Assembly: GCA_951406725.2 (NCBI GenBank)
Contig: OX597841.1
Span: forward strand, 12,958,001-13,022,000
From: Octopus vulgaris
Lineage: Eukaryota
Length of the DNA stretch: 64,000 nucleotides
Direction of reading: 5' to 3'
Below the pieces are notes generated by a model that was not told the origin of the DNA, ran no database searches, and saw only the letters and a list, made by a program, of their open reading frames with translations. Made by a program: the position numbers and the translations under genes. Positions 53,186-61,009 of the stretch are shown one piece after another (the stretch's first letter is position 1; each line of letters begins with the position of its first letter).

Positions 53186-54008
53186 TCTCAAACATTTAAT
53201 CACAAAATGCTTTTTCTTTCACATAGAATATAGATGCATAAAATCACGGAAGATGAAACACAACCCACCAATACAAGCATATAAGAAAAATATAGGGAAA
53301 ATGTGTGAATACAGTCCATCGCGGTTAAAAGTTGATGATTAATAATTTAGTGACTAAAAAGAATATATATTTTTTAGCATTACAACATCTAGAATAATAG
53401 ATACATAAAAATATAAAGAAATATGTAAATATATAGATATAAGACTTGTTCTGCTTAAGGAGGTCACACCCTGGTACATGATGTGCGTTTCTTAATTTTT
53501 CCCATAACGAAGGAGTAATTATTGTGGTGCACCCTCGGGCATTAAGTACAGTGATGAACCCCTGAAATGGCCATAGGGAATGTAAATATGGTTTCTTCTT
53601 TTTTGCTTGGACACTGGCTTTTAACAATAGGTTTCCCTTATCTTGAAAAGTAATTTTTAATTGAAAAAATTTCTAAACGATGAACTTTTATCTTACCTTA
53701 TATATTAGTTATTTATATGTTTCCTATATATAAGTATTTTTATATCTTTTTATATATCTATATATTCATATATTTCTTTATATTTTTATGTATTTATTAT
53801 TCTAGATGTTGTAATGCTAAAAAATATATATTCTTTTTAGTCACTAATTTATTAATTATCAACTTTTAACCGTGATGGACTGTATTCACACATTTTCCCT
53901 ATATTTTTCTTATATGCTTGTATTGGAGGGTTGTGTTTCATCTTCCGTGATTTTATGCATCTATATTCTATGTGAAAGAAAAAGCATTTTGTGATTAAAT
54001 GTTTGAGA
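53186..54008. mobile_element. Foldback element (arms ~53186-53425 and ~53769-54008) with a decayed hammerhead in the spacer; duplicate at ~56610-57433
   Basis: Arms are reverse complements (the same pseudo-peptide appears on both strands in the ORF track); spacer motif at 53499-53580. Confidence 0.7.
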
Positions 54009-56484: not shown

Positions 56485-57627
56485 AATATATCAATAATAA
56501 AGTGATTGTTTCTTATCAGGAACAAAATGTTTTTAAATTAAATGAGACAAATATATAAAACGATGGTTGCAGAACAAACAAATACAAGGTCATCCACGTA
56601 ACATTTCGTATCTCAAACATTTAATCACAAAATGCTTTTTCTTTCACATAGAATATAGATGCATAGAATCACGGAAGATGAATCACAACCCACCAATACA
56701 AGCATATAAGAAAAATATAAGAAAAATGTGTGAATACAGTCCATCGCGGTCAAAAGTTGATGATTAATAAATTAGTGACTAAAAAGAAATATATATTTTT
56801 TAGCATTACAACATCTAGAATAATAGATACATAAAAATATAAAGAAATATATAAATATATAGATATAAAACTTGTTCTGCTTAAGGAGGTCACACCCTGG
56901 TACATGATGTGCGTTTCTTAATTTTTCCCATAACGAAGGAGTAAATATTGTGGTGCACCCTCGGGCATTAAGTACAGTGATGAACCCCTGAAATGGCCAT
57001 AGGGAATGTAAATATGGTTTCTTCTTTTTTGCTTGGACACTGGCTTTTAACAATAGGTTTCCCTTATCTTGAAAAGTAATTTTTAATTGGAAAAATTTCT
57101 AAACGATGAACTTTTATCTCACCTTATATATTAGTTATTTATATGTTTCCTATATATAAGTATTTTTATATCTTTTTATATATCTATATATTTATATATT
57201 TCTTTATATTTTTATGTATTTATTATTCTAGATGTTGTAATGCTAAAAAATATATATTCTTTTTAGTCACTAATTTATTAATTATCAACTTTTAACCGTG
57301 ATGGACTGTATTCACACATTTTCCCTATATTTTTCTTATATGCTTGTATTGGTGGGTTGTGATTCATCTTCCGTGATTTTATGCATCTATATTCTATGTG
57401 AAAGAAAAAGCATTTTGTGATTAAATGTTTGAGAAGGGCATCAAGCTGTAGAAACTCTGCCAGATCATATTGGAGGCTGGTGTGGCCTCCTGCCTCACCA
57501 GTGCCCACTCAAACCGTCCAACCCATGCCAGCATGGAAAGCAGACTTTAAATGATGATGATGATGATAATGATGATATAAATATGTATATATACATATAT
57601 ATATAATATATATATAAGTATATATAC

Positions 57628-57660: not shown

Positions 57661-57667
<7 letters not shown>

Positions 57668-57796
57668 CTCGAACACACAATTGCAAACAAGGGAGTCAGA
57701 GAAAGGCAGAATGCTACTTATATCTGAACACTACTATAGAAATATTCTTTTAAAAAAACTTTTCTTCTAATTTTTCTAAATTTAATTATATAATCG

Positions 57797-57840
57797 TTAC
57801 AGTTGAAAAGGTCTCAAAATGACCGAAACCGGTACTGAAA
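57797..57840 (+). ncRNA. Minimal type I hammerhead variant (U3-A8 core)
   Basis: TTACAG [TTGAAAA] GGTC-tcaaaat-GACC [GAAA] CCGG [TA] CTGAAA. Confidence 0.6.
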
Positions 57841-57935
57841 GATTCACTATAAAATTATCTTAGCATTTTCTATTTTTGACTTGTTTTTTCATATATATGT
57901 ATATATATACATAATATATATATAAGCATATATAC

Positions 57936-57972
<37 letters not shown>

Positions 57973-58090
57973 AATCAAGGAACGGCCATAATAGGCCATT
58001 CACCCACTAGAAATAACAGCCAAAGCTTCAACCGCAAAATAACATTAATTCCGTAAACCAGGAGAAAATTAAAAAAACGTTTACCCTGTA

Positions 58091-58197
58091 ATTTCTTATA
58101 CGATGCACCGTTTCATCTACTGTTTAATGGTAAACTAACCTGATTAAATTAAATCAAGCCAATCTTCCATAGGCCCTTAGATTCGTCAGTAAGAAAT
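58091..58197 (-). ncRNA. Type I hammerhead ribozyme, canonical core, extended stem II
   Basis: Reverse complement of 58521-58627 with all core bases intact. Confidence 0.82.
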
Positions 58198-58520
58198 AGC
58201 CAGATCGGAACAGATATTTTCACGAGGCACTTCTGTCCCTGCCTCGGCAATATCTGACCTAAAATTTTCAAATCATCGCACTCGCGCCAAATTTATCGGC
58301 AGCAAATAAATATGGTGACAAAAAAATTCTACAAAATTTTTTTGCCACCCTATATTGATTAATTATGAATTTTCTGGTTGATTCCGTAATGGAATCGGCG
58401 GCTTATATTTATTTGCTGCCGATAAATTTGGCGCAAGTGCGATGATTTGAAAATTTTAGGTCAGATATTGCCGAGGCAGGGACAGAAGTGCCTCGTGAAA
58501 ATATCTGTTCCGTTCTGGCT

Positions 58521-58627
58521 ATTTCTTACTGACGAATCTAAGGGCCTATGGAAGATTGGCTTGATTTAATTTAATCAGGTTAGTTTACCATTAAACAGTA
58601 GATGAAACGGTGCATCGTATAAGAAAT
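58521..58627 (+). ncRNA. Type I hammerhead ribozyme, canonical core, extended stem II
   Basis: ATTTCTTA [CTGACGA] ATCTA-(58 nt including a hairpin)-TAGAT [GAAA] CGGTGCATCG [TA] TAAGAAAT; predicted cleavage after A58619 (GUA). Confidence 0.85.
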
Positions 58628-58853
58628 TACAGGGTAAACGTTTTTTTTAATTTTCTCCTGGTTTGCGGAATTAATGTTATTTTGCGGTTGAAGCTTTGGC
58701 TGTTATTTCTAGTGGGTGAATGGCCTATTATGGCCGTTCCTTGATTGTGATGTTGAACTTATAAATGGTCTATGACTATTTAATTTTTTCTCACTAGGCC
58801 GCTGGTGACAAAAAAATTCTAGAAAATTTTTTTGCCACCCTATATTGATTAAT

Positions 58854-58885
<32 letters not shown>

Positions 58886-58886
58886 C

Positions 58887-58940
<54 letters not shown>

Positions 58941-58966
58941 GTATATATACATATGTATATATATAC

Positions 58967-59004
<38 letters not shown>

Positions 59005-59214
59005 GTATAAATATATACAAATGGTGTTTTTTATGTGCCACCTGCACAGGAGCCAATCCATCGGTACTAGCAACGACCTCGGTCGAATGTTTTGTTCATG
59101 TGCCACCAGCACAAGTGCCAGTAAGGAGACGCTGGTAACGATCACGCTCGAATGGTGCCTTTTACGTGCCATATATATATATATATATAAATATATGCAT
59201 ATATCTATATATAT

Positions 59215-59503
59215 TACCATGATCACCGTGACCGACCAGGCTATCAGACGTTGCTACACATCGCTGATCACAATGCGCTTCGCATTGTGTTTTAGCCATC
59301 AAATGACGCCACCCCGCTGGCTAAGCGAGCAGGCCAACAGAAGAAAGAGAGAAAGTTGTGGCGAAAGAGTACAGCAGGGATCGCCACCACCCTCTGCCGG
59401 AGCCTCTGGGAGCTTTAGGTGTTTCCGCTCAATAAACACTCACAACGCCCGGTCTGGAAATCGAAACCGCGAGTCTGCTGCCCTAACCATTGGGCCATTG
59501 CGC
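59215..59503 (-). mobile_element. tRNA-derived SINE (family C head, alternative body)
   Basis: GGCGCAATGGCCCAATGGTTAGGGCAGC...GGTTTCGATTTCC. Confidence 0.8.
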
Positions 59504-59539
59504 CTCTCTCTCTCTCTACATATATATATATATATATAT

Positions 59540-59880
59540 ATAATTAATCAATATAGGGTGGCAAATAATTTTGTAGAATTTTTTTGTCACCAGCGGCCTA
59601 GTGGGAAAAAATTAAATAGTCATAGACCATTTATAAGTTCAACATCACAATCAAGGAACGGCCATAATAGGCCATTCACCCACTAGAAATAACAGCCAAA
59701 GCTTCAACCGCAAAATAACATTAATTCCGTAAACCAGGAGAAAATTAAAAAAAACATTTACCCTGTAATTTCTTATATGATGCACCGTTTCATCTACTGT
59801 TTAATGGTAAACTAACCTGATGAAATTAAATCAAGCCAATCTTCCATAGGCCCTTAGATTCGTCAGTAAGAAATAGCCAG
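59540..59880 (-). mobile_element. Third copy of the hammerhead element (ribozyme at 59768-59874)
   Basis: Reverse complement of 58515-58856; one G>A change at the base of stem III (CGGTGCATCA TA). Confidence 0.85.
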
Positions 59881-61009
59881 ATATATATATACTCGACTGA
59901 TATGCATTGTTCTATTGCAGAATATATGTATAAATGAATTGTTGAACTTATCTGAAATTCTCCTTGACATCTTTTTATAGCTTTGTGTCCCACGCCTTTA
60001 TCTGAGGCTTCTGACTACTGCCCATATCATAAACAAAGAAGCTTTTCTATATATATCTATATTATACACGCACACACATACTTTATTAAAAAGCAGCAGA
60101 AATATCACAAAAACTATTACTCAGAAATTCACGTTCCACTTCATTGAACAGCAACACGAATCTCTGAGTGACAGTTTTTGTTATATTTCTGCTGCATTTT
60201 AATAAAGTACATCACTCTACCGAGTACAATTTTTACACACCTTGTTTCATATTTATGTGCTTTACGCTAAGAGTACCATACGAGTGAAATCGTTGCCAGG
60301 GCAACAAGCGGGCCTCCGTGCCGGTAGCACATAAAAACACCATTCGAGCGTGATCGTCGCCTTACTAGTACTTACGCTAGTGCTACGTGAAAAATCATTC
60401 AAGCAAAGTCGTTGCCAGTGCTGCTGGACTGGCTCCTGTGCAGATGGCACATAAAAAGCACCATTTGAGTGTGGCCGTTGCCAGTACTGCCTGATTGGCC
60501 CTCGTGCTGGTGGCACATAAAAGCACCCACTACATCATCATTGTTCGACCGTGGTCGAGACTTTCATAGTCTTTTCAAATGGCTAATAATGTGTGCGCGC
60601 GCCACTACTACACACATTGGAAAGCATTGTACAACCAAGTACTAAAGAAGATCTTTCCTCCTCCATGAAACAAAGCTGTTCCCGCTGGACGTCAACCCAG
60701 TATTTCTAAGCTACGGACCCAGTGATTTATTGTAAGGTTATCTCCCTAGATAGATTGCCTTCACTACGGCTAAGGAGCCCTTTCTACCCCAAAGGCCTAC
60801 ATACCATGCACATGTGCATGTGTGTACACATACACACAAGGCTTCTTTCAGTTTCTGCCTACCAAATCCACTCATAAAGCTCTGATTGACCTGAGACTAT
60901 GGTATGGTATAAGACAACTTCCCAAGGTGCCATGCACTGAAAGGACTGGTTTCTATGTTTCTATGTTTATATTTTACTTTATGGAATATCCTGTTTTGTA
61001 AATTATATA

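Follow-up and report, generated by a model that had tools for sequence, protein, structure and literature searches.

A dispersed hammerhead retrozyme of Octopus vulgaris with two fixed 3' ends at TA microsatellites, probably moved by Penelope-type priming

Metazoan non-LTR retrozymes were described by Cervera and de la Pena 2020 (PMC7229834), have been reviewed (PMC7761336), and were treated again by Li, Clavereau and Pollet 2026 (10.64898/2026.07.22.740005); mobilization of retrozymes by Penelope has already been proposed in all three. The review states that no conserved motif indicates the mobilizing element (PMC7761336), Li et al. 2026 favor local amplification of a terminal repeat, and the text of PMC7229834 uses none of the terms "target site", "inverted" and "microsatellite". 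The 490-nt octopus repeat examined here resembles the elements described there in its non-coding tandem units, each with one type I hammerhead and a weak palindromic stem III, in the apparent lack of LTR, PBS and PPT, in the presence of Penelope-like elements in the same genome, and in a unit length within the 51-972 bp size range of Li et al. 2026. It differs from them, as described there, in a stem II of 68 nt and in carrying the full Penelope footprint: two fixed 3' ends, a one-sided tail, an inverted 5'-truncated arm, and targeting to TA. No homology to known pseudo-LTRs was found for it, compared with 21 Penelope matches among Xenopus families (10.64898/2026.07.22.740005).

Complex insertions are known for endonuclease-positive Penelope-like elements (Craig et al. 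2021, PMC8557442; Arkhipova et al. 2013, PMC3846280; Frangieh et al. 2024, PMC11167929). Their tail is described as 30-40 bp long and frequently confined to one end (PMC8557442, PMC3846280). Compared with these insertions as described, the octopus family has no ORF, its tail is 105 nt rather than 30-40, the placement of the tail at one end becomes a near-absolute, counted rule (75 of 75), and its non-nested arms speak against an origin by self-priming. Both non-LTR retrozymes and Penelope fold-backs were known before. A literature search, with subscription titles largely outside its reach and with the supplements of the 2026 preprint and of PMC8557442, Repbase, and Dfam outside its scope, returned no description of this family, of a Penelope footprint on a retrozyme, or of a count of one site per arm; those supplements may list related families.

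The 490-nt unit and its hammerhead

Coordinates refer to the window, the whole 64-kb stretch of DNA that was analyzed, and q denotes a position within the reference monomer at 58313-58802 (q1 = 58313). Features are collected in Table 1.

Table 1. Features of the retrozyme copies in the window, and coding Penelope-like families elsewhere in the genome
Feature	Position	Strand	Basis or remark
Reference monomer, 490 nt, non-coding	58313..58802	+	repeat period, alignment, ORF scan, folding
Fold-back left arm, q93-439	57968..58313	-	3' end at upstream start site B (57968), abuts (TA)n
Fold-back right arm, full unit plus 54 nt	58313..58856	+	5'-truncated at q1; 3' end at downstream site A (58856), abuts (TA)n
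Separate single-arm insertion, q202-490 plus q1-54	59540..59881	-	3' end at site A, TA on either side
Tail, 105 nt, between site B (q439, 58751) and site A (q54 of the next unit)	58752..58856	+
8-bp hairpin directly upstream of site B	58718..58739	+	each pair kept in 112-114 of 113-114 loci
Hairpin q2-37 directly upstream of site A	58804..58839	+	repeated at 58314-58349
GATTCC-GTAAT-GGAATC hairpin, inside unit	58380..58396	+	sequence
TA microsatellite target, left flank	57891..57967	.
TA microsatellite target, right flank	58857..59017	.
Type I hammerhead	58521..58627	+	descriptor match, conservation
Hammerhead stem I, 8 bp	58521-28/58620-27	+
Hammerhead core CUGACGA	58529-35	+
Hammerhead stem II, 68 nt	58536-58603	+
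Hammerhead GAAA	58604-07	+
Second intact hammerhead, left arm	58091..58197	-	core identical to central copy
Hammerhead of the 59540 piece	59768-59874	-	G-to-A at 59778 breaks a stem III C-G pair
fam1, 811-aa frame	loci L131-L160, L191-L210		RVT_1 above cut-off, weak GIY-YIG (Pfam)
fam2	loci L161-L190		no Pfam match
fam3, 717-aa frame	loci L261-L280		no Pfam match
fam4-6	loci L281-L340		two 3' ends, TA targets

The sequence-only reading of the window had described a 54-bp direct repeat setting a 490-nt period, an inverted copy of about 345 bp preceding it, a third inverted copy at 59540, two copies that stop at a common base flush with (TA)n, the absence of an ORF, and one hammerhead per monomer, and each of these descriptions holds. 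The direct repeat (58313-58366 and 58803-58856) is 98% identical at a spacing of 490; the preceding copy is the left arm, 346 bp with 98.8% identity to q93-439; the third is the single-arm insertion; and the common base is q54. No ORF of 30 or more aa lies wholly inside the unit, and those that touch it extend through the microsatellite. The type I descriptor matches once per unit.

The layout built on these parts requires revision. Inverted copies are present, as the tandem-plus-inverted description had it, but the window holds only 1.11 units in tandem. The GATTCC hairpin that had been placed near a monomer junction exists, but it is internal to the unit (its first base is A, not G, in 53 of 87 loci, a count for the q68 column only). 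The 54-bp repeat marks the 5' truncation of the copy found here and no biological junction, and the three pieces, taken for one arrangement, are two independent insertions, with the 59540 piece in another TA tract. "Circular permutation" likewise falls away as evidence: only the 5' ends scatter, by 5' truncation, while the 3' ends sit at two fixed sites. The two arms of the window's fold-back meet head-to-head with a 1-nt overlap at 58313, site B lying at the left (q439) and site A at the right (q54). That the left arm stops at the other fixed site is the feature that tells most about the insertion, and the sequence-only reading had passed over it. None of 100 dinucleotide shuffles folds as well as the unit (z=-5.2).

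The hammerhead has a palindromic stem III and a GUA triplet, and cleavage is predicted between 58619 and 58620 (q307/308). Among 2000 base shuffles, the type I descriptor found any match in one and an equally good match in none. The length of stem II, 68 nt, explains why Rfam returned no hammerhead, whether at gathering score or with E-values of up to 10; the 59 matches it did return up to E=10 are miRNA-like, fall on microsatellite or palindrome, and include no hammerhead. Thirteen core positions are unvarying in 94-100 loci, counting one allele per locus, while any of the four bases occurs at position 7 and position 17 is restricted to A or C, a tolerance that matches what is known for hammerheads. 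About 60% of unit positions are invariant in the first 101 loci, so an invariant core at 13 of 13 positions has a chance near 0.001. Paired changes are seen in stem II (A-U 79, G-C 12) and at the center of the stem III palindrome (G-C 89, A-U 9); these are subfamily changes and count as few events. On the evidence of this conservation, the ribozyme is judged to be under selection. A second, degenerate hammerhead within the unit, or an internal duplication (q93-205 against q206-320), was considered and not accepted, at p=0.025 after one look.

Hammerheads were seen in other repeats of the genome as well. L044, L055, L071, L096, L130, L209 and L210 are other hammerhead-bearing repeats, six of them with a 53-69-nt stem II, and L044 and L210 have a tandem redundancy resembling further retrozyme families. 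The 3' UTR of fam3 contains a hammerhead-like motif, with the core CCGA(A/U)GA replacing CUGANGA, in all copies shown (L261-L280), and the 4-kb unit of fam1 has no canonical hammerhead.

The surroundings of the insertion are themselves repetitive. A short-end 3' stub of fam4, a coding Penelope-like family, occupies 57665-57890 on the plus strand, at 88% identity over the aligned stretch; the imperfect TA tracts that flank it are 94% alike over 79 bp, resembling a long target duplication, and the retrozyme insertion sits in the right-hand tract. A second fold-back element without an ORF is found twice, at 56611-57434 and 53186-54008, about 3.4 kb apart and 99% identical, which suggests, from the sequence, a local duplication. 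Positions 1-21591 form a (CATA)-type satellite of about 21 kb, its plus strand nearly without G, broken near 9.5-11 kb by a block that recurs at 22.6-24.2 kb.

Genome-wide copies and coding Penelope-like families

Exact patterns searched across the 2.8-Gb genome gave 763 junctions of site A with TA, 419 junctions of site B with TA, and 2,491 matches to the hammerhead 5' core, against 0, 0 and 1 for the respective reversed-pattern controls. A DNA search, in which 40 of 1587 candidates were scored, returned at least 214 matches, the full-length ones 97-99% identical and many of them head-to-tail. By these counts, many hundreds of young, protein-free copies are spread through the genome. For closer study, 120 loci were fetched and joined to the window to make 121. 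An internal 24-mer of the hammerhead anchored 40 of them and the core 13; ends A and B anchored 27 and 20, respectively, and the remaining 20 were top DNA-search matches. The anchored sets consist of the first listed places on contigs C1 and C2.

A genome-wide look at the copies, suggested by the sequence-only reading, finds tandem arrays to be frequent and an ORF for RT plus GIY-YIG flanking none of the 121 loci. Classed by their longest arm, 43 loci fall short of one unit, 33 reach one unit, and 45 have two to fourteen. Four Penelope-like protein queries detected no ORF contiguous with any arm at the 121 loci, and therefore the family is a non-LTR retrozyme, and the solo pseudo-LTR that had been offered as the alternative fails for the family. 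The nearest Penelope-like ORFs are 381, 423 and 529 bp away, those at 381 and 529 belonging to fam1 elements with their own 3' ends. An autonomous Penelope-like element is likewise rejected on the 0 of 121 loci with such flanking ORFs, and a plant-type LTR retrozyme is ruled out by the type I topology (not type III) and the lack of a unique core. Judged on the sampled sequence, the 490-nt family is a dispersed, ORF-less, non-autonomous non-LTR retrozyme, the identity first proposed from its tandem units and hammerhead.

A broader form of the alternative, close to the scenario of Li et al. 2026, would derive the copies, as stubs or solo pseudo-LTRs, from a coding Penelope-like element, and their arrays from later local DNA amplification. 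It draws on the 43 of 121 loci that have no full-unit arm, on an end anatomy that is that of coding elements, on signs of local duplication in the longest arrays, and on a partner search that took in six families when more exist. Against it, an arm reaches a full unit or more in 78 of the 121 loci, and the unit joins itself head-to-tail where the ORF would be. The two inverted arms, furthermore, are often both multimeric and terminate at priming sites, an outcome that unequal crossing-over would not yield. For the whole family, this reading is largely refuted by the sequence comparison, and we consider it very improbable. The longest arrays, up to 14 units, are a separate matter. In L111, L112 and L113, with 8-14 units each, variants are common to irregular or two-unit-spaced subsets of units, which indicates later local expansion, conversion, or assembly error; to judge from these variants, the longest arrays may have grown after insertion.

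At least six coding Penelope-like families reside in the genome, several of them very young, with many identical open frames. The six that were compared each have two 3' ends at TA targets, with tails of about 40, 57, 70, 36-40, 58 and 40-45 nt. The fam1 protein matched no solved structure. We take fam2 and fam3 to be Penelope-like from RT and GIY-YIG motifs, together with their end anatomy. The retrozyme unit shares no sequence with the 3' regions of the six families (the full unit was compared for fam1 only), and no autonomous partner was found among them, their tails of about 36-70 nt being shorter than the 105 nt of the retrozyme.

Two 3' ends, one per arm

Of 209 arms at the 121 loci, 197 end at site A (98) or site B (99), with 12 ending elsewhere, where A is the range q44-62 (mostly q54) and B the range q430-456 (mostly q439), both fixed after the ends had been seen. 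The sites lie 105 nt apart across the unit boundary, each 5-6 nt 3' of a TTGATT that is itself preceded by a strong conserved hairpin. The 5' ends scatter around the unit. TA directly adjoins 194 of the 197 canonical 3' ends, which bears out the proposed targeting of TA microsatellites; target-site duplications are unreadable inside (TA)n.

The two sites are paired in head-to-head insertions. Among 86 of these, 75 combine one A end with one B end, none has two A ends or two B ends, and 11 include an off-site end. Restricting the count to loci picked regardless of their ends leaves 42 of 42 classifiable cases as AB, for which the chance is at most 0.5^42, and a later end-blind set (L211-L223) added four AB, no AA, no BB, and three with an off-site end. 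Single-arm insertions use either site (19 A, 18 B), and either arm of a fold-back can be the longer one. The coding elements show the same pattern. In fam1, with 40 nt between its ends, a long end is combined with a short one in 14 of 16 fold-backs, the other two being one long/long and one with an off-site end; in fam3, with about 70 nt between its ends, the combination occurs in 15 of 15. By these end counts, two autonomous Penelope-like families obey the same rule as the retrozyme.

One circumstance that would permit an assembly artefact is that the junction at 58313 is unbridged (31 nt on each side) among the contig pieces listed. False fold-backs, however, mirror one end together with its flank, whereas here the ends differ in 75 of 75 cases and the flanks differ too, and the junctions of the ends with TA turn up, as loose ends, in contigs from other runs: X15-X17 show that of site A, X3 and X10 that of site B. 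We regard an artefactual origin of the tandem-plus-inverted layout as exceedingly improbable.

The relationship between the two arms was examined in the first 68 AB fold-backs. Their junctions overlap in 46 of 68, 33 of these by 1-4 nt, as in microhomology joins. Unit divergence is 0.7% within arms, 0.8% between the arms of a locus, and 4.5-4.6% between loci, and rare alleles are common to the two arms in 252 of 313 comparisons, against 325 of 5951 for other loci as the control; therefore both arms come from one RNA, or from sister RNAs of one source. In 19 of the 68, each arm has sequence absent from the other at any register, and therefore neither arm is a snap-back copy of the other. In ten, the two arms terminate at one RNA position, where permutation predicts 2.1 (p=5e-5); as read from the sequence, these symmetric fold-backs are compatible with a common 5' end of the RNA, with self-priming, or with a palindrome center that was lost later.

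The symmetric cases, which suit the copying of a hairpin, together with the alleles that arms have in common, are what a model of single priming can call on; the inverted arm would then arise by self-priming or snap-back, and the difference in tails from endonuclease resolution of an intermediate. Self-priming has been proposed for a rotifer Penelope, on an antisense template, in two reports (PMC3846280, PMC8557442). The 19 fold-backs with arm-private sequence stand against such a model, as do the use of both sites to end single-arm insertions and the freedom of either arm to be the longer, and we hold it to be unlikely, by a wide measure. Two independent, RNA-templated primings are the likely source of the two arms, and that the retrozyme is moved by Penelope-type TPRT we consider highly probable. 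The anatomy of arms and ends supports, in addition, the earlier suggestion of Penelope-type reverse transcription from a template longer than one unit.

Twin priming by L1 offers a parallel. There, each of the two target strands primes a cDNA on the same RNA, and the result is a head-to-head inversion with a microhomology join; the second priming point is variable, and the arms are adjacent and non-overlapping in the RNA. The octopus insertions share the head-to-head inversion and the microhomology join, but both of their priming points are fixed, and their arms overlap in RNA coordinates.

Template and proposed mechanism

A circular monomer seems to us, by a modest preference, the usual template. 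In favor of a monomer bottleneck, many haplotypes form homogeneous arrays, and 134 of 178 arms run through the predicted cut site, about 279 passes showing no deletion at q298-310. Among 129 units, the nearest unit lies in the same locus for 85, in another locus for 19, and is tied for 25. In 8 of 36 loci with at least three units, an allele is fixed in all units and absent from every other sampled locus, and 28 of the 36 have no such private fixed allele. No clear accumulation of stops at site B is seen among site-A arms, and therefore a model with one RNA would need strand displacement. The RNA-editing signature sought, a sense-strand excess of A>G, was absent both from distinct alleles (45 A>G against 57 T>C, p=0.62) and from rare fixed alleles (8 A>G against 11 T>C), and therefore gives no handle on the template strand.

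The same two-site Penelope priming might instead act on a linear template, either a partly self-cleaved multimer transcribed from an array or two sister RNAs, with circles absent or a side product. We find this possible, though less probable than a circle. At q308-325, just inside the predicted cut, the 47 end-anchored loci show ten 5' stops (in 10 loci) against 3.1 expected, and just upstream 3 against 2.9. The excess, which a linear RNA with a cleaved 5' end would explain, is seen also in arms longer than one unit (L074, L075, L076, L100); it peaks, however, at q314-331, overlapping a U-tract that favors microhomology joins, and the end-anchored sets have none at q308-311. The ten symmetric fold-backs point the same way, as do the coding families, which follow the end rule with 4-kb units, the 19 units nearest to another locus with the 25 ties, and the 28 loci without a private fixed allele. 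Read-through of a young, homogeneous source array would yield similar arrays, and unprocessed RNA is the main substrate in vitro (PMC11167929). On the other side, arms with a mean length of about 500-740 nt would shorten and diversify arrays over generations, whereas many haplotypes are found, each homogeneous (0.7% against 4.6%); the private fixed alleles of 8 of 36 loci also speak against it, and circles are the main form of other animal retrozymes (PMC7229834). Reopening of circles, or the use of partly cleaved multimers as extra templates, could on the present sequences reconcile the two views of the template.

From the end positions, the pairing rule, the shared alleles, and the conservation read in the genome, we infer transcription, cleavage, circles, the enzyme, and displacement, in the following scheme. 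Genomic arrays would be transcribed, and the predicted hammerhead would free unit-length RNA, probably acting as a dimer through its palindromic stem III. A host ligase would then close this RNA, by analogy with other animal retrozymes (PMC7229834). The closed RNA would be bound by a borrowed Penelope-like protein, and an asymmetric complex of RT and endonuclease would nick both strands of (TA)n. One cDNA would begin at site B and the other at site A, by twin priming from both cut strands, and both would run 5'-ward, by strand displacement or on two sister RNAs, possibly for more than one round. The two cDNA ends would be joined by microhomology, and a single-arm insertion would result if only one cDNA is completed. 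Taken as a whole, a dispersed retrozyme with two-site ends, copied in trans by a Penelope-like RT/GIY-YIG protein on one RNA that is probably a circle, is the account we lean toward, with somewhat better than even confidence.

Several of these steps have counterparts in vitro. In PMC11167929, a Penelope-like protein, predicted to be dimeric, cuts and extends both strands and initiates synthesis at two sites within the RNA, between which the tail lies. Two findings of that work speak against the scheme: hammerhead cleavage is dispensable for insertion, and start sites are alike on both strands. A bolder version of the preferred account, which we offer tentatively and rate as rather doubtful, holds that each fold-back preserves the trace of a single covalently closed RNA, a circle on which one asymmetric dimer of a Penelope RT did the copying. 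Two active sites, one per cut strand, would start 105 nt apart and chase each other round the circle by displacement, and the borrowed enzyme would have its spacing fixed by the folded hairpins of the long tail. If true, a dimer on a circle would unite retrozyme multimers, the Penelope tail, and Penelope second-strand formation in one mechanism.

What moves animal retrozymes and how Penelope insertion is completed are both called open in the literature (PMC7229834; PMC7761336; PMC8557442; PMC11167929). The octopus family supplies countable genomic evidence that retrozyme arrays are probably written at insertion by Penelope-type priming, and not only grown in place. It turns the qualitative remark that the tail is often at one end into a rule that predicts one start site per target strand, and a 490-nt RNA with two mapped start sites would be a small template suited to the existing in vitro assay.
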